Source: Thiotrichaceae bacterium
GTDB taxonomy: Bacteria; Pseudomonadota; Gammaproteobacteria; Thiotrichales; Thiotrichaceae
Direction: 5' to 3'
NCBI GenBank assembly: GCA_026992705.1
Contig: JALWYT010000007.1
Span: 1,312 to 30,673, forward strand
Length of the DNA stretch: 29,362 nucleotides
The position numbers and the translations under genes were made by a program. Under the pieces are notes generated by a model that saw only the letters and a program-made list of their open reading frames with translations, ran no database searches and had not been told where the DNA came from. Below are positions 1 to 28,669 of the stretch, one piece after another. Numbering within the stretch: position 1 is the stretch's first letter; every line of letters starts with the position of its first letter.

Positions 1-792
1 ACCACGATTAGAGAATGTTTGTAAAAAGATTGCACCAGCAACGAAAACAGTTGCAAAAGCAAGCCAAAAGCGTTGTGCTTGATACCAAAATCTTACAACA
101 ATTGCCGATGTTCCTTGGAAGATAAGTGATAATAAGGGGGCTGATGACAGCGTCAGTAACATGGATAAAAATAAAACAAGCACACCGACAAAATAACGTG
201 TTTTAAATTTAAAGAGCATCAGCATTAGCATAAATGGAAAAAATAGGGCGGCAATAGTGCCGTAAAGAATGGGGTGAGCGAATACATTGGTTGCTCTGAG
301 AATGCCTAGCCTTACATAATAATGTGTATAAAGCCGATAATCTAAGGAATCATGCCCTGTTAGCATTTTTGCCCATTCGTGCAAAATGCGGTGATGTGAA
401 AAGCTCTCGTAAACGCCAAAGCCAAACAGCAATACTAAAATAGCGACAAAGCTGATTTGCATGGTGTAAAAGCGTTTTGGTGTGGTAATCCACATTTTAG
501 CGAGGTAGAAAGCCCCTAGTGTTTCAATTGCATAAATACCCGTTGACTCAAGTGCTTTTTGAATATTATGATTATAAACAAAACTAATAAATACCAAGCC
601 AACTAATGCAAATAGCAGAATATCAATGAGATCCGCTTCTTCTAATAAGCGACGAAAATTGAGCAGGCTATAAATTAACGCGATGCCTAGCACAACGCGA
701 TAAGGCTCAATGCGTAAGCTTCCTGCCATAACGTGAAACTCGACAGGAATAAAAATTGAGAGAATAAATAAGATGATTAAAATGCTAGGCAT
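1..792 (-). CDS. O-antigen ligase/Wzy polymerase-like multi-pass membrane protein (partial, runs off the window edge)
   Basis: Not in the ORF track. My translation from ATG at 792 is open for 264 codons to position 1: MPSILIILFILSIFIPVEFHVMAGSLRIEPYRVVLG...GILRATNVFAHPILYGTIAALFFP...SMLLTLSSAPLLSLIFQG. Many hydrophobic segments, RAxxxFxHPIxYG and TxSSxP motifs typical of Wzy_C/O-antigen-ligase-like proteins, and a position downstream of wzx. Confidence 0.75.
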   Translation of the reverse strand, partial: MPSILIILFILSIFIPVEFHVMAGSLRIEPYRVVLGIALIYSLLNFRRLLEEADLIDILLFALVGLVFISFVYNHNIQKALESTGIYAIETLGAFYLAKMWITTPKRFYTMQISFVAILVLLFGFGVYESFSHHRILHEWAKMLTGHDSLDYRLYTHYYVRLGILRATNVFAHPILYGTIAALFFPFMLMLMLFKFKTRYFVGVLVLFLSMLLTLSSAPLLSLIFQGTSAIVVRFWYQAQRFWLAFATVFVAGAIFLQTFSNRG

Positions 793-21609: not shown

Positions 21610-24600
21610 TTACAATAGTACCTTTTCAATCCCTCCATTTACGGCTTTTTTCACAAAATCCTCTCGCCATTTGTTGCCTAATATGTGTTTGGCAAGTTCA
21701 ACAACAATATAGTCGGTTTGCAAGCCTGTTGTGCTTTGGTAGCGGGATAGCCCTTGTTGGCAGGCGGGGCAGGAGGTGAGTATTTTTACGTCGTTTTGTT
21801 GGGCTTTTTCTTTGCCTATGAAGGCTTTTATGCCTTTTTTCAGCTCTTCTTCTTTGCGGAAGCGTAGTTGTGTGGCGATGTCGGGGCGGCTGACGGCAAA
21901 GGTTCCTGCTTCGCCACAGCAGCGGTCGGATAGGGTGATTTGTTGATTGCCGAGCAATTTTTGAGCAACGTCGATGGAGTTGTGGATTTTCATCGGTGTG
22001 TGGCAGGGTTCGTGATACAGGTATTGTTGCCCTTTAATTCCTTGTATTTTCACGTCTTTTTCCATTAGGTATTCATGAATATCTAATAAGCGACAGTCAG
22101 GGAAGATGCGTTGGAATTCATATTTTAGCAATTGATCCATACAGGTTCCGCAGGAGACGATGACCGTTTTGATATTGAGATAGCTCAATGCGTGAGCGAT
22201 GCGATGAAATAAAACACGGTTTTCGGTTGAAATTTGTGAAGCTCGCTCGGTATCACCGCCTGCATTTTGCGGATAGCCACAGCAAAGATAGCCTGGGGGT
22301 AGTACAGTGGTTGTGCCGACGTAGTGCAGCATTGCCAGTGTTGCGATACCAACTTGGCTAAATAAGCGTTCGGAGCCACAACCGGGGAAATAAAAGACAG
22401 CATCGCTGTTTTTGCTGGTCTTTTTTGCATCACGCAAAATAGGAATGACTTTGTTATCTTCTAAGCCCAGCATCGCTCGCATGGTTTTACTAGGCACATC
22501 GCTTGGCAATGGTTTTTTAACAAATTCAATGACGTGCTCGGTAATCTTAGGCTTGCCGATGGTTTTTGCAGGTTGCTTTTTCTTTTTGAATGCACCGAAT
22601 GTTTTTAAAGCTCGATGCCCAAAGGCTTGAGCTTTAAAGCCTATTCGAATTATTCCTGTACGAGCTAATTTAATGGTGCTTGGGTCGCTTGCATTCAAGA
22701 ACATCATGGAGGCTTGCGTGACGAGACTACTTTTTCTTAAACCCCGTTCTTTTAGCAATTTACGCATTCGCACACTGACATCACCAAAGTCAATATTAAC
22801 AGGGCAAGGGGTGAAGCATTTGTGACAGATGGTGCAATGGTCGGCAACATCGTTCATCTCGTCAAAATGTCGAATGGAAATGCCGCGTTTGGTTTGCTCC
22901 TCATACAAAAACGCCTCAATACTCAAGCCTGTTGCGAGAATTTTATTACGCGGGGAGTACAGCAGATTAGCTCGCGGAATATGCGTGGTGCAGACTGGCT
23001 TGCATTTTCCACAGCGGAGGCAGTCTTTAATATCATTATTGAGTTTGCCCAGTTCATCATTTTCTAGCACGATGGTTTCCCGCTCAACAAGGCGTAGTGA
23101 GGGAGTATAAGCCTTTTGCAAACCCGAATCTGGCATTAATTTGCCTTTGTTAAAATGCCCGTTAGGGTCGATTTTTTGCTTGTAATCGGCAAAGGCTTGG
23201 CTAATCTCCTTCTGCAAATATTGCATTTTAGTTAGCCCAATACCGTGTTCGCCTGAGATAACGCCATCGAGTGATTGAGCTAATTCCATGATTTCATCGA
23301 CCAAATGCTCCGCCTCATTCATCATGTCATAATCATTGGAATTAACGGGGATATTGGTATGCACATTGCCATCACCCGCGTGCATGTGCAGGGCAATAAA
23401 TAGGCGACGATTGCGGTATTTTTTATGGATTTGGACGATGTTTTCCCGCAAAGGCTTGAGATTATTGCCAACGAAAATTTGCTGTAATGGCTTTCTAACT
23501 TCATTGCGATAGGAAATCAGTACATCTCGACGCAATAATAGATTGATCAGCTTATCGTTGGGGCGGCAGCGGCTTTGTTCTTCTTTTGAAAGCAGGTGTT
23601 GGCAGTCTGAAGCGGGGGTTTCAAAATTATCTAAAATGGCGGTCCAGCGTTGTTTTAGCGTGTTTAGATGCTGTACGGCATTGTCGATTTTTGCTTGTAG
23701 AATTTCGTCATTTTCTTGGCTGTCCTCATAATTGGCAATTTGTCGCAGTTCAGGTTGATCGCCTTGTAAGCAGTCAAGCATGGCATCAATGGTTTGCAAT
23801 TTATTGAGCATGGATTGACGAATATTAATTTTCTCAATGCCCTCACTATAAGCAGCTAAATTATGCAGCGGGATTACCACATCTTCATTGATTTTAAAGG
23901 CATTGGTATGAGCAGCAATCGCAGCGGTTCTTGCACGGTCAAGCCAGAATGACCGCCTTGCTTCGGGGCTAGTGGCAGTAAACCCTTCAGCATTGCGTTG
24001 ATTGGCAAGCCTAATAACTTCAGAAGCAGCCGCAGAAACCGCATCGTCATCATCGCTGACAATATCCGCAATTAGCACCATTTTAGGCAATATGCCTCTT
24101 GCTCCTTTGGGGGTGTATTTGACCGCTTTGACATAGCGTTCATCTAAATGCTCTAAACCTGCGAGTAGAACATCGGGGTTATTGTCGAGTGTGTCTTTAA
24201 TTTCGACAATGGCAGGCACGGCTTCGTGTAAATCTGTACCGTAGAATTCCAAACAGACTGTGCGAATCTTTTCAGGCATTCTGTGCAGAATAAATTCAGC
24301 CGAGGTAATAAGCCCATCGCAGCCTTCTTTTTGAATACCCGGCAGACCGCCGAGGAATTTATTGGTGACATCTTTGCCCAAGCCTGCTTTGCGGAAAAAA
24401 CTACCCGCATAGCGTAGGATTTCAGGTTCAGCTTTTGGGGTTTTGCCGTCTTTTTCATAGCGGGTAACGGCAAATTCGACGGTTTCAGCCTCGTGTAATT
24501 TGCCGAGATTATGGTTCAACCGCCTAACTTCTAGCCAGTCGGCATCAGGCGTAACCATTCGCCATGAGACAAGATTATCAAGCGTGGTTCCCCAGAGAAC

Positions 24601-25464
24601 GGCTTTTTTACCACCTGCATTCATGGAAACATTACCGCCGATGGTCGAAGCATCTTGCGAGGTGGGATCAACAGCGAATACTAAGCCATGATTTTCAGCC
24701 AGCTCTGATACTCGCCGAGTGACTACGCCTGCACCTGTGCGAACGGTTGCGACCTTCTGCCCGTTGGCAGCAATATCATCGCGGTATGTTACCTCGCTGA
24801 TGTGTTCTAATTTTTCTGTATTTATCACCGCTGAGTGGCAGTCCAGCGGAATCGCTCCCCCCGTATAACCTGTACCACCACCACGTGGAATAATGGTCAA
24901 ACCTAAGTCAATGCAGCATTGCACTAAATTAACAATTTCTTCTTCACTGTCAGGCGTTAGCACAACAAAAGGAAGCTCAACCCGCCAGTCGGTTGCATCA
25001 GTAACATGAGCGACTCGTGATAGACCGTCGAATAAGATATTGTTTTTATTGGTATAATTTCTAAATAATTTGCGAGCTTTGTCGCGTAACTTTTTATGAC
25101 GTGGAAACCAATCGGCAAAATCTTGTACCGCATCACTGGCATATTGCACCAAATCTAGGGTAAGTAAATTACCTGCCGCCCGCTCTTTAATGCGGTCAAT
25201 ACGCTCGTTTAAGGATTTAATCAAGGCATCTAAGCGGTCGCTGTGTTTTAGTAAATCATCCTGAATATATGGATTACGCGATGCAATCCACATATCGCCC
25301 AGCATTTCTAATAGCATATGAGCAGAAACGCCCGTATTACGACTGCCACGCAATGATTCTAAAATATCCCACGCCTTCTCACCAAGCAAGCGATGCACGA
25401 TTTCGCGGTCAGAAAATGATGTGTAGTTATAAGGAATTTCGCGGATAGTTTGTGTATTTGCCAT
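21610..25464 (-). CDS. Multidomain FAD-binding / 4Fe-4S / CCG oxidoreductase (DUF3683-DUF3400 type, glycolate/D-lactate dehydrogenase-like)
   Basis: 1284 aa. [76 protein letters not shown] and RCCGEAG. Confidence 0.92.
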
Positions 25465-25539: not shown

Positions 25540-26853
25540 TTAAATATACTGCTCTATTAACAAGACTAGCTTGTCAATTAATTGCTTTTGATCTTGATCT
25601 GATAAAGAGCTAAGAGGTTGGTAAGGGTTATTGATTGGTGAGTAACGAGATATATTGTCTGCAAAATTAAAACCGCAAGGATTAAGGATAATAGGGATAA
25701 CGTTTGTTTGGTCATTATTAGCTTGGGATAATAATATGGTGAAGTCTGTATTTTGGGTAAAAGGAGAGTGGAGGAAGTCATTGGAGATTAATAAAACTAC
25801 AATTTTTGCTTGTCTAAGTTCCTCATCGATATAGGGGTACCAATCTGGTTGTGTGTTAAATTTGGTGTTTTCCCAGTATTTGATATTTACTTTATCTTTT
25901 AGCTTTGTCAGCGAGTTTTTTAATTTTTCTAGCCATGTTTTGTCATGACAATGATAGGCAATAATAATTTGCTTAGTTGATGTATAGGTTATTGATTTTT
26001 TGTGCTGATAAGTCAAAAAAGTGTACCCTGAGAATGGGTTGATTTGTATAAATAGTTTTCCATTGGGATAAACCTTCCAACCATTTTCACTTAAATAAGG
26101 TTCAATATAGTCATGACTTTCGTGTTCAGAAGCACATTCAGCAAGTAACTTTGCTCCGTCATCCCAGCTTGGATCAATGCGGTTGTGTAGGATTTTAGGT
26201 TTGACAGATTGCTGCTTGGATAAGTGCAGGCTGATAATTACGACATCATGTTTTTTTAACTGCTCTGCTTGTTTGGCAATGCTGTAATCCGGAGCATCAG
26301 AGGCTAAGCCATCTGATAAGATAATCAATACTTTTAAGCCGTACTCAGTCTCTTTGCTTGCCTTATGAAATACCTCATCAACTTTTTCTAAGGCAGTCAT
26401 GAGTGGGCTAGTCCCTTGTGCAGTGATAGCAAGGGATTTGAGGTGAGCTTGCTGTTTTTTCCAGTCTTTGATCAGAGCTCCAAGCTTGATAATGGGGGAT
26501 TCTTGTTTAAATAGACTTTTTATTGCAGGTTCTTCTTTTTCAGAGAGTATTGAAACAGGGTTGTCGAAACCAAAGCCATAGGCGAATAGGTCGATATTAT
26601 TTTCTGAAACTAGTGAGGGTTTGATGAGTTTGATTTTTTGTACGCTTTGCTCAAGTAGCCCTGTAAACACATCCAAGCCTGATTGTTTTTGGCTTGCTTG
26701 TGATATGGATGCAGAGGCATCAACAAGAATGCCAATCAGCCAAGGATGTGAAGAGTTAGGGCGATTAATTGTGTTTCCCCTTATTTGGTAAATCTTCTGA
26801 AATATCGACGGGAATTTCAATACCATCATCTGATATTTTAGGAGGGACAGCAT
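25540..26853 (-). CDS. vWA domain fused to a C-terminal TIR-like domain
   Basis: N-terminal vWA with MIDAS DASAS, GTSP and ILSDG. The C-terminal ~140 aa (25971-25540) read IIIAYHCHDKTWLEKL...YWENTK...W...IDEELRQAKIVVLLISNDFLHS...VIPIILNPC, a bacterial TIR_2 pattern. Coordinates are the maximal ORF; the true start is probably ATT at 26769. Confidence 0.75.
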   Translation of the reverse strand: MLSLLKYQMMVLKFPSIFQKIYQIRGNTINRPNSSHPWLIGILVDASASISQASQKQSGLDVFTGLLEQSVQKIKLIKPSLVSENNIDLFAYGFGFDNPVSILSEKEEPAIKSLFKQESPIIKLGALIKDWKKQQAHLKSLAITAQGTSPLMTALEKVDEVFHKASKETEYGLKVLIILSDGLASDAPDYSIAKQAEQLKKHDVVIISLHLSKQQSVKPKILHNRIDPSWDDGAKLLAECASEHESHDYIEPYLSENGWKVYPNGKLFIQINPFSGYTFLTYQHKKSITYTSTKQIIIAYHCHDKTWLEKLKNSLTKLKDKVNIKYWENTKFNTQPDWYPYIDEELRQAKIVVLLISNDFLHSPFTQNTDFTILLSQANNDQTNVIPIILNPCGFNFADNISRYSPINNPYQPLSSLSDQDQKQLIDKLVLLIEQYI

Positions 26854-28426
26854 CGACAGAATTCATTAAATGTTGTAACCCTTTTAGTTGTTGCTTGATT
26901 TCAGGGCTTATATCTTCACTTTCTTCAATAATTTGTATGATTTCAGGAGTTAAGCCTTCTTCTTCGATACGTTTTTGAATATCACCTGGTAGTTGTAAAC
27001 TAGGTTCAGTATTTGCTTGTGGTTCTGGTGCAAACTTTGCAATTAACTCTTCTGGTGTCATTGTTTCCCCATTTAGTGTGATCTTACCATCTGCGAAGCT
27101 GGCATTTAGAATAAGCTTATTATTTTCATCTTTTAGCATACCTTCAGGAGTCATCATAGTTAACAGCATCTTCATTTGATCGGGTAACATTGCTTTGTCA
27201 ATGTTAAGATCAATTGTGCCTGTGATAAAATTTAGTAAACCTGAAACATCACCTAATAATAAGCTATCTATATCGATAGTTTTTTGCTCATTACCCGTAT
27301 AGATAAGTTTGCTATCTAATGTTGTATTACCTCTATCACCTAATAGTTTGATAACTTGATTAAATTGTGTTTTTTGAGCGATTAACACTTTGTCAAATAT
27401 GACCTTAATCATTTCTTTGCTAGTGTCTTGTAACTGCTGAATTAAGGACATCATTTTTTCTTGTCCCTCGGGGGTTTGCGTCGCATCTGCATTCCACATT
27501 AATTGATTTTGTAGATTATTGATTTTAGCTTCAATTTGGCTAACTGCTTGCAAACCTGTTGCACTCAAGCCCTGATAATTTGCATGATAGCTTGCTTGTT
27601 TGATGGTGTGCGATGGTTCAACAATATTTTCTGCTTGTAATTGTAGTGTGCCGTTGACTTCATCACCTTGTTGTTCTGAATTGCTTGTGGCTGATAAATC
27701 AAAAGTAATAGCATCACCTGTTGTTGGTTTTAGTTTGATTTCTGGTGCAGATACTTTGCTGCTTCCTAACATTTGTGAGCCAATAAAGCCGGTGATATTT
27801 AGGTCAGCCGTTACGCTAGGGATAATAAGCTCTAGGTTTTTATCTTGCAGATGCATTTCACCAATTGCAAGTTTAGCTGTACCCGTATTATTTTGCATGG
27901 ATTGTGTGCCACTGAGTGTTAAACCATCAATATCAAAATTTGCCTCACCTGCTTGGCTAAGTGGTGAAATCTTGATGGTATAATGTGCTTTTTGATCAAA
28001 GCCAATAAAGTTCTCAGCAATAATGGGGGTTTTATTAGAAAAAAGCTCGGCAATAACGATTGCTGTGTTTTCATCCAAGGCATCAAGATCAATCTGTGAA
28101 ACAGATTTAGATACGCCAAACTCAAGCCCTGTTTCTGTTAAAAAGACAGGTCCATGAGTAATTTTTGTAATGATTTTGGCATTAGATAAAATATTATCAA
28201 TAAAGGGGGAGCCCGTTGTAATTTTTAATATAGCCTGTGCGTTACGGAATGATGTATTTTTATAATCAAGTAATTCAATTGTCACACCATTATTCGTGGC
28301 ATTATTATTGTTGATATATTGTTTAATTTGATTCTCAGTTTCTTGTGAGAGGAACCATGTGGTACCACTCCAAATAACAGCAATAAGAATGGTAAGGAGG
28401 ATAAGTGTTCCAAATAACTTTTTCAT
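26765..28426 (-). CDS. YdgA / DUF945 family membrane-anchored protein
   Basis: 553 aa. Single N-terminal TM anchor (…AVIWSGTTWFLSQETENQI), ELLDY....F...A, ITHGP, and GKITLNG near the end of the conserved region. Confidence 0.8.
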   Translation of the reverse strand: MKKLFGTLILLTILIAVIWSGTTWFLSQETENQIKQYINNNNATNNGVTIELLDYKNTSFRNAQAILKITTGSPFIDNILSNAKIITKITHGPVFLTETGLEFGVSKSVSQIDLDALDENTAIVIAELFSNKTPIIAENFIGFDQKAHYTIKISPLSQAGEANFDIDGLTLSGTQSMQNNTGTAKLAIGEMHLQDKNLELIIPSVTADLNITGFIGSQMLGSSKVSAPEIKLKPTTGDAITFDLSATSNSEQQGDEVNGTLQLQAENIVEPSHTIKQASYHANYQGLSATGLQAVSQIEAKINNLQNQLMWNADATQTPEGQEKMMSLIQQLQDTSKEMIKVIFDKVLIAQKTQFNQVIKLLGDRGNTTLDSKLIYTGNEQKTIDIDSLLLGDVSGLLNFITGTIDLNIDKAMLPDQMKMLLTMMTPEGMLKDENNKLILNASFADGKITLNGETMTPEELIAKFAPEPQANTEPSLQLPGDIQKRIEEEGLTPEIIQIIEESEDISPEIKQQLKGLQHLMNSVDAVPPKISDDGIEIPVDISEDLPNKGKHN

Positions 28427-28468: not shown

Positions 28469-28669
28469 TTAAATTTCACAGCCCTTCTCACCATAAATAG
28501 CCATGATTGATTTAAGTTCTGCATAGAGATAATCACAATCCTGTTTTGAAAAGCCATTAAGCTCAGTAGGTATCACATTTTGATCTAATTGACCAAGCAA
28601 TATGTTGATTTTTTTACAACCAAGCTGGCAGAGTTCTTCAAGTGCATTTTCTAAATGTTCATTTGTCAT
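28469..28669 (-). CDS. Small hypothetical protein, 66 aa with four Cys
   Basis: LEELCQLGC...ELKSIMAIY. Co-oriented upstream of DUF945 and divergent from hemB; fills an otherwise empty gap. Confidence 0.65.
   Translation of the reverse strand: MTNEHLENALEELCQLGCKKINILLGQLDQNVIPTELNGFSKQDCDYLYAELKSIMAIYGEKGCEI

Follow-up and report, generated by a model that had tools for sequence, protein, structure and literature searches.

In the present work, we examine a gene for a two-domain protein, a vWA domain fused to a TIR domain, that lies in a 29,362-nucleotide stretch of DNA (called the window below) from a Thiotrichaceae bacterium. The host genome is a metagenome-assembled genome (MAG) of 2.14 Mb, 97.9% complete and with 5.3% contamination, and the DNA of the window is present in hydrothermal-vent metagenomes. 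We will argue that the gene encodes a TerY-type vWA domain joined to a TIR domain that has probably become a pseudo-enzyme, that its translation would be scarce and coupled to the gene upstream, and that this upstream gene, of the DUF945 family, probably acts as a carrier. To this reading as a whole we give a probability of about 0.5. The parts of the gene, with positions counted along the window, are as follows.

25540..26769, minus strand: vWA-TIR coding sequence as re-annotated, 409 amino acids, likely start ATT 26769-26767, stop TAA 25542-25540 (comparative DNA, Pfam, AlphaFold2)
26035..26745, minus strand: TerY-type vWA domain, residues 9-245 (Pfam, Foldseek, homologue alignment)
25975..26034, minus strand: linker, residues 246-265, poorly conserved and disordered (pLDDT, the predicted value of the local distance difference test, <50 at residues 248-259; ratio of nonsynonymous to synonymous substitution rates, dN/dS, 0.45-1.6)
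25543..25974, minus strand: TIR-fold domain with degenerate active site, residues 266-409 (Pfam, AlphaFold2, Foldseek, alignment)
26777..26782, minus strand: Shine-Dalgarno sequence AAGGGG, 7 nt upstream of the ATT
26770..26853, minus strand: non-conserved 5' extension of 84 nt inside the 3' end of the DUF945 gene, with ATGs at 26853, 26829 and 26826

The list of open reading frames (ORFs) contains a frame 26853→25540 on the minus strand, 437 amino acids long from its first ATG, in which Pfam finds VWA (PF00092, 1.6e-5, residues 130-211) and TIR_2 (PF13676, 2.2e-11), both passing their gathering scores. The AlphaFold2 model of the whole protein, made with a 117-sequence alignment, has a mean pLDDT of 90.8, and residues 248-259 of the linker are its sole disordered part. 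Foldseek matches the N-terminal half to vWA and I-domain folds (TRAP, the anthrax-toxin receptors ANTXR, integrin I, BatB, Rea1-MIDAS). The metal-ion-dependent adhesion site (MIDAS) is formed by DASAS at 26721-26707 (Asp17/Ser19/Ser21), the GTS motif with Thr120 at 26412-26410 and the SDG motif with Asp153 at 26313-26311, and these five residues are conserved in 31 of 31 full-length homologues. An earlier note on this DNA had described a vWA domain with complete MIDAS, a linker and a TIR domain, and all the methods above, together with the homologues, bear this out. The gene itself is real; positions 25601-27017 were assembled with 0 differences in a second, independent sample. An export signal or signal peptide was not seen in the protein, and no RNA runs containing the vWA-TIR sequence were found.

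Foldseek matches of the whole protein are dominated by vWA folds, and a separate model of the TIR part was therefore made (pLDDT 94.1). Its structural matches are RRS1 (top) and RPS4, AbTir, TIR-1/SARM1 and the SPARTA TIRs, with template-modelling scores of about 0.5-0.63. A profile search of the same part matches 49 PDB TIR chains, and PADLOC assigns it to a ThsB-type profile (7.8e-13). No full-length defence-system model in PADLOC or NCBIfam fits the protein, the matches being limited to this ThsB-type TIR and to weak TerY ones.

The family is sparsely distributed. A search gave 10 matches among 5.8 billion clustered proteins, 6 of them full-length, while HMMER over 1.84 billion representatives returned 24 proteins at E<1e-30, about 20 of which are full-length vWA-TIR proteins of 27-44% identity. 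Among the 107 genomes of the GTDB family, full-length copies occur only in the window's genus, in 3/3 of its genomes. When 31 full-length proteins are placed in a maximum-likelihood tree, a long branch with 100% support separates 10 proteins on the window's side (the window's clade) from 21 on a side that bears the glutamate discussed next (the Glu-bearing side). Between the two sides, the identity is 25-30% over the full length, with the same MIDAS and the same protein length.

The catalytic motif tested for a TIR NADase was the alphaC sequence S-x-[WF]-[CI]-x-x-E-L. In a profile alignment, the consensus Glu of the family falls on the Glu of SSWCLDEL, a motif of plant TIRs (3jrn), and this Glu we take to be the TIR catalytic residue. 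Comparing 8 sequences of the window's clade with 70 other TIRs, we found the catalytic Glu in 0 of 8 vs 68 of 70, the BB-loop Gly in 0 of 8 vs 65 of 70, the betaA Ser in 1 of 8 vs 65 of 70, the Pro after the Glu in 0 of 8 vs 55 of 70, and Gln377 in 0 of 8 vs 65 of 70. The hydrophobic and structural core positions are kept in 7-8 of the 8. The window's own TIR has Asp342 (GAC 25746-25744) at the position of the catalytic Glu, Gln307 at that of the BB-loop Gly and Ala271 at that of the betaA Ser. Over all 10 members of the clade, the Glu position holds D (in the window and in its homologues L054 and L001), A, T, R, I, I, S and V, and the loss maps to one branch of the tree as one change, with a support of 100 in the Shimodaira-Hasegawa-like approximate likelihood-ratio test (SH-aLRT). 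The TIR domain of the window's clade is thus probably a pseudo-enzyme that has retained the fold and lost the chemistry. The NADase or signal-generating activity that had been envisaged for it is unlikely, the catalytic Glu, the BB-loop Gly and the betaA Ser having been lost across the clade.

The loss of these residues is not accompanied by decay of the frame, which is intact in 10 sequences of the clade spanning about 30-84% identity. Relative to L054, which is 84% identical, dN/dS is 0.14 for the vWA domain and 0.09 for the TIR domain, and relative to L001, a 53% relative, it is about 0.15 for each. The overall range in both domains is 0.09-0.19, which corresponds to purifying selection. 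Judged by its substitutions, the TIR domain is not decaying.

The likely start of the gene is the ATT at 26769-26767 and not the ATG at 26853, because the ATGs further upstream lack a Shine-Dalgarno sequence (none was found before 26853, 26829 or 26826), because the 5' extension is not conserved, and because a Shine-Dalgarno sequence followed by ATT or ATC is found in 9/9 of the clade loci whose DNA was compared. In L054 an in-frame TAG closes the extension, and in L001 the stop codon of DUF945 does so. In the nine loci, the Shine-Dalgarno sequence (AAGGAG, AGGAG, AAGGGG or TAAGG) precedes an ATT (6 loci) or an ATC (3 loci) by 6-10 nt, and in 8 of them ATG, GTG and TTG are absent from the interval that runs from the in-frame upstream stop to the conserved strand Pro-Trp-Leu-(Ile/Val)-Gly. 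The peptide that follows the ATT or ATC is conserved (I-D-L-Y-K-P-S in one subclade), with a dN/dS of 0.09 and 0.15 for the N-terminal codons in two more divergent pairs; for the pair of the window and L054 the value is 0.65, from too few changes to tell. The frame 25540..26853 that the earlier note had given to the gene does exist, but its 5' 84 nt (26770-26853) are probably not translated as part of vWA-TIR.

The ATT overlaps the DUF945 stop codon by one base (ATTAA), and in all nine loci vWA-TIR lies 0-71 nt behind a co-directional gene (DUF945 in five, and cobN, a glyoxalase gene, a GH114 gene and one unknown gene in the others). A weak, coupled start behind another gene appears, from the DNA of these loci, to be a consistent feature of the clade. 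Initiation in E. coli from AUU or AUC reaches about 1-2% of the AUG level, and AUU is confirmed as the start codon of infC and pcnB only (bioRxiv 10.1101/063800). Conservation of a non-canonical start across a family, here AUU or AUC behind a Shine-Dalgarno sequence, is unusual for genes other than infC and pcnB. The likeness to infC is that such a start is conserved across orthologues in both cases; the infC protein, IF3, which regulates its own gene, is unrelated to vWA-TIR, and a dependence of vWA-TIR on IF3 is something that we infer. It can also be observed that infC of the window's genome (G000 contig C356, L057, minus strand) has no ATG, GTG or TTG upstream of IF3_N, and that GGAG is followed there, after 8 nt, by ATC, so that the start is non-canonical as in E. 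coli infC.

The layout of the start has a practical consequence for databases. The gene calls of six database entries (P0003, P0004, P0011, P0013, P0015 and P0020) start inside or after the DxSxS motif, and their precomputed Pfam annotation consists of TIR_2 alone or of a weak VWA match. The calls are truncated because no canonical start codon exists. Since the truncation would delete strand β1 and the MIDAS, the family looks TIR-only in the databases and its vWA domain is missed.

Turning to the vWA domain, we aligned the profile of the family with the TerY protein encoded by the same genome. With hhalign, the match has a probability of 94.6% and an E-value of 7e-8 over 221 columns (residues 5-241), and it includes the family-specific C-terminal subdomain of the vWA domain (residues ~185-245), in which Trp202 and Trp231 are invariant in the family. 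The PADLOC TerY profile PDLC02224 matches 5/16 family members, best P0018 (1.4e-6), and gives E 0.0041 for the window's protein (residues 116-237). By these alignments, the vWA domain is of the TerY type. The same module (residues ~30-273) is elsewhere fused to EAD8, to a classical AAA ATPase or to an N-terminal CHAT peptidase, and it also occurs with a transmembrane segment or a C-terminal alpha/beta-hydrolase. The suggestion that the vWA domain belongs to the families of conflict systems is hence upheld, both by its likeness to TerY and by the CHAT, EAD8 and alpha/beta-hydrolase domains of its relatives.

Two groups of known systems are relevant here. The TerY-P triad, consisting of a TerY-like vWA protein, a PP2C phosphatase and a Ser/Thr kinase, was predicted by Anantharaman et al. 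2012, and anti-phage activity of a TerY-P-like module was demonstrated by Gao et al. 2020 (both works as cited in PMC11090510 and PMC7699616). The vWA-TIR protein aligns with TerY over the whole vWA domain, C-terminal subdomain included, and has an intact MIDAS. However, the identity is ~22%, a TIR domain is fused where TerY ends, and the kinase and phosphatase that neighbour TerY have no counterpart here. The second group comprises the vWA-MoxR-VMAP/iSTAND ternary systems, in which vWA-TIR fusions have been described (Kaur, Burroughs, Iyer & Aravind 2020, PMC7159879), so that the architecture was not undescribed, as it had been thought to be. These systems have in common with the window's gene a polypeptide with vWA and TIR domains and, among the relatives of its vWA domain, EAD8, CHAT or alpha/beta-hydrolase fusions. 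The window's gene, in contrast, is single and has housekeeping surroundings, its TIR lacks the Glu, and neither MoxR nor VMAP/iSTAND adjoins vWA-TIR at any locus examined. What appears to be new in the sequences is the clade-wide pseudo-TIR, the family-wide Shine-Dalgarno sequence with AUU or AUC start and the mis-annotation that follows, and DUF945 as a carrier.

We also considered a link to cobN and cobaltochelatase, on the basis of a weak TIGR02442 match (E 0.0018) and of the homologue in the congeneric genome G055, which lies 71 nt behind cobN. This link was rejected, because no CobN was found in the window's genome (97.9% complete), and because in the congeneric genome G056 cobN is on another contig than vWA-TIR.

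The Glu-bearing side of the tree provides the natural counterpart of the window's clade. The six loci examined (L033, L034, L035, L036, L043 and L005) share 40-68% identity and come from Holophagales, Ideonella, Pseudanabaena and Rhodopirellula, that is, from Acidobacteriota, Betaproteobacteria, Cyanobacteria and Planctomycetota. Their genes start with ATG and adjoin IS91 transposases or phage-type integrases. In none of the six was a MoxR, kinase, phosphatase or other conserved neighbour found. When the neighbours were compared all against all by BLAST, transposases and integrases alone gave matches. Neither Pfam nor PADLOC recognises the small ORFs upstream in L043 and L005, and DUF945 is not adjacent in any locus of this side. 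The stand-alone genes (e.g. AFDB cluster A0A2M8R7R4) share the two-domain architecture of the window's gene and lie in mobile surroundings, but keep the Glu, the BB-loop Gly and the ATG start, three features that the window's clade has lost. The Glu-bearing vWA-TIR gene looks like a candidate for a mobile defence made of a single gene, one without a model in PADLOC v2. In L005, a ThsB-like TIR gene (PADLOC 4e-109) and a HerA-like gene are found nearby.

With these elements, a reading of the window's gene can be formulated. The ancestor would be a stand-alone TerY-vWA-TIR gene carried on mobile elements, which kept the Glu and was probably a self-contained, NAD-depleting switch triggered by infection, and which then became resident in the hydrothermal-vent Thiotrichaceae lineage. 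The present product is a 409-residue cytoplasmic protein with an intact TerY-type MIDAS, a flexible linker and a TIR domain without the residues that NADases need. The MIDAS would bind an acidic side chain of a protein ligand, and the TIR domain would serve not as a NADase but as a non-catalytic surface for homotypic assembly or adaptor contacts. The AUU or AUC start would keep the protein very scarce and make its production depend on the gene upstream and on discrimination by IF3, initiation being presumably coupled or IF3-discriminated. The layout of infC in the same genome is alike. In this subclade, DUF945 would be the carrier for transcription and translation. As far as sequence can tell, the gene seems to descend from a mobile suicide-immunity gene of bacteria and to have been tamed to the point of being barely translated.

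The top Foldseek match, RRS1, is what we take to be a non-catalytic TIR; the relation of the window's TIR to RRS1 and to the animal adaptor TIRs is a structural and functional analogy only, and not one of membership. Bacterial TIRs are usually treated as NADases or signal synthases, and a clade that keeps the fold and sheds the catalytic residues forms, with its Glu-bearing sister clade, a natural pair for asking what a bacterial TIR does without catalysis.

It is important to point out that several observations weigh against the reading just given. A scaffold role for a non-catalytic TIR has little precedent in bacteria, and the Asp that the window (Asp342) and its two nearest relatives have in place of the Glu might allow some catalysis. 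The AUU start is deduced from comparative sequence, and the window is the sole locus of the nine with in-frame ATGs upstream. Finally, DUF945 is retained immediately upstream in five divergent loci, its stop codon overlapping the vWA-TIR start or lying close to it, although the genes downstream vary.

A more specific version is that the clade is a domesticated, non-catalytic TIR adaptor, comparable in function to the animal adaptor TIRs or to plant RRS1, with its synthesis gated by the fidelity of initiation, and its start of the same AUU/AUC class as that of infC in the genome; it would be an immune-derived sensor of translational perturbation. The protein would then accumulate only when IF3 discrimination drops, under stress, in the cold or upon takeover of translation by a phage; the MIDAS would capture its ligand and the pseudo-TIR would nucleate assembly, while the gene is always the distal, coupled member of some other operon. 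We consider this version speculative and, as it stands, unlikely.

Among the alternatives to a pseudo-enzyme adaptor, an active abortive-infection effector has to be considered first. Here, the vWA domain would sense a phage protein, and the TIR domain would oligomerise and hydrolyse NAD+ by means of Asp342 or another acid. Such an effector would agree with the TIR fold and the ThsB-type PADLOC match, with the Asp found in the window, L054 and L001, with the strong purifying selection on both domains and with a sister clade that resembles a mobile single-gene defence; the AUU start might merely keep a toxic enzyme scarce, low expression being suitable for a toxic effector. However, the other members have A, T, R, I, S or V at the critical position, such that no acidic residue is conserved, and the BB-loop Gly and betaA Ser are gone as well. 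The contexts are moreover housekeeping ones, with no mobile elements or defence islands as neighbours. With Thoeris ThsB and the TIR NADases (AbTir, SPARTA TIR-APAZ) the TIR fold is shared, but the catalytic Glu is absent and no ThsA-type gene is present among the flanking genes of vWA-TIR, the rest of the genome not having been searched for ThsA. We regard an active effector as an improbable option.

The next alternative concerns the neighbouring genes, which are the following.

26765..28426, minus strand: DUF945 (YdgA-like) gene, directly upstream of vWA-TIR, 553 amino acids with an N-terminal signal-anchor (Pfam 5e-33)
28469..28669, minus strand: small Cys-rich ORF of 66 amino acids with 4 invariant Cys, between hemB and DUF945
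21610-25464, minus strand: fusion gene of 1284 amino acids (DUF3683, FAD-linked oxidase, 4Fe-4S, CCG and DUF3400), directly downstream of vWA-TIR

The downstream fusion gene is not kept at this position in the related loci. DUF945, on the other hand, had been proposed as an envelope partner, and one can envisage a two-gene module reaching from the envelope to the cytoplasm, with DUF945 as the partner, the vWA domain as sensor and the TIR domain as output or adaptor. DUF945 is single-copy in the window's genome and lies directly upstream in 5 clade loci that are 43-84% identical, although the downstream genes of the five differ; start and stop codons overlap or are 5-26 nt apart, and the region joining the two genes showed no terminator-like site. 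The five vWA-TIR proteins, however, form one monophyletic subclade (99% support). At least 3 of their genes are at the same hemB(-)/DUF945 locus, 2 of these with the small Cys-rich ORF in between, and the other two contigs end inside DUF945. The congener G055 keeps hemB, the small ORF and DUF945 (44% identity), followed by argG, while its vWA-TIR (31%, of the other subclade) is found behind cobN. Four clade members outside the subclade, that of G055 among them, follow unrelated genes (cobN, glyoxalase, GH114 and one unknown), and DUF945 is missing as a neighbour from all 5 clade loci outside it. In addition, the body of DUF945 is predicted from the signal-anchor to be mostly periplasmic, while an export signal is missing from vWA-TIR. 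For DUF945 (553 residues) together with vWA-TIR (409 residues), complex prediction gave a score of 0.00, which is evidence neither for nor against binding, and titles and abstracts on DUF945/YdgA contain nothing informative about its function.

Because the linkage has a single monophyletic origin at one locus, and because G055 keeps DUF945 there without the gene, the adjacency is probably inherited synteny, combined with probable co-transcription and translational coupling. DUF945 would be the inherited carrier gene of one subclade and not the conserved partner that it had been taken for, although a lineage-specific functional tie between the two is possible. The two-gene module thus appears rather doubtful, and the case calls for caution, as the adjacency reflects inheritance and probably translational coupling and does not in itself demonstrate a partnership.

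It can also be asked whether vWA-TIR is a trans-acting part of a TerY-P triad or of a MoxR-type ATPase system encoded elsewhere. As the earlier note had stated, no MoxR, kinase or phosphatase adjoins the gene in the window, the neighbours being DUF945 and the DUF3683-FAD-oxidase-CCG gene, and the same absence of an adjacent MoxR, kinase or phosphatase was found in 15 loci examined. The TerY likeness of the vWA domain and the vWA-TIR fusions of the MoxR ternary systems (PMC7159879) would fit a part acting in trans, and the window's genome contains candidates for both systems. One is a TerY gene (PADLOC 3.5e-105) followed by a PP2C_2 phosphatase gene on the 1.58-kb contig C184 of G000 (L056:707-1558 and 3-692, minus strand), probably a fragment of a TerY-P triad that is either accessory or bin contamination (5.3%). 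But no TerY was found in G055 and G056, which both have vWA-TIR. The other candidate is the genome's one clear AAA_3 MoxR gene, on contig C64 beside nadA. An AAA_3 MoxR is absent from the window, no vWA or VMAP gene was found in the 2.3 kb assembled around the C64 gene, and no related locus has an adjacent MoxR; MoxR in trans was rejected on this basis. A trans-acting role is, overall, quite improbable.

That the gene is a decaying relic of a defence gene without present function, as its lost catalytic residues, its lack of a canonical start codon and its few database matches might suggest, is very improbable, considering the open frames of all ten clade sequences, the dN/dS of both domains, the MIDAS in every member and the conservation of the Shine-Dalgarno-ATT/ATC layout itself.

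Some minor observations can be added. The divergence between the window and L054 (a contig of ENA ERZ23491061) is mosaic over window positions 26175-26774. The N-terminal ~200 codons of the vWA domain, beginning exactly at the ATT start, have 95-100% DNA identity, while the 3' end of DUF945 and the TIR half are only 70-80% identical; the synonymous divergence (dS) is 0.14 for the vWA domain vs 1.84 for the TIR domain. The X5 contig, from another study, matches positions 26528-26781 and then diverges. The pattern suggests a recent recombinational exchange of the vWA allele between strains, and an assembly chimera in L054 may be another source of it.

The small Cys-rich ORF is found with 79% and 44% identity in two congeners, including G055, where DUF945 lacks the vWA-TIR neighbour. 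It has no family match and might be a small protein for metal or redox binding that is transcribed together with DUF945.

Finally, the window's genome contains a second TIR gene, beside relA/spoT on G000 contig C240 (L030:3110-4366, plus strand). It matches TIR_2, has the Glu in the sequence FVRLE, and encodes, besides transmembrane segments, an LprI-like domain in the periplasm. The gene is interrupted inside betaC (CAVM*VIIG) by a TGA in frame, which could be the mark of a pseudogene, an assembly error or a site of read-through.

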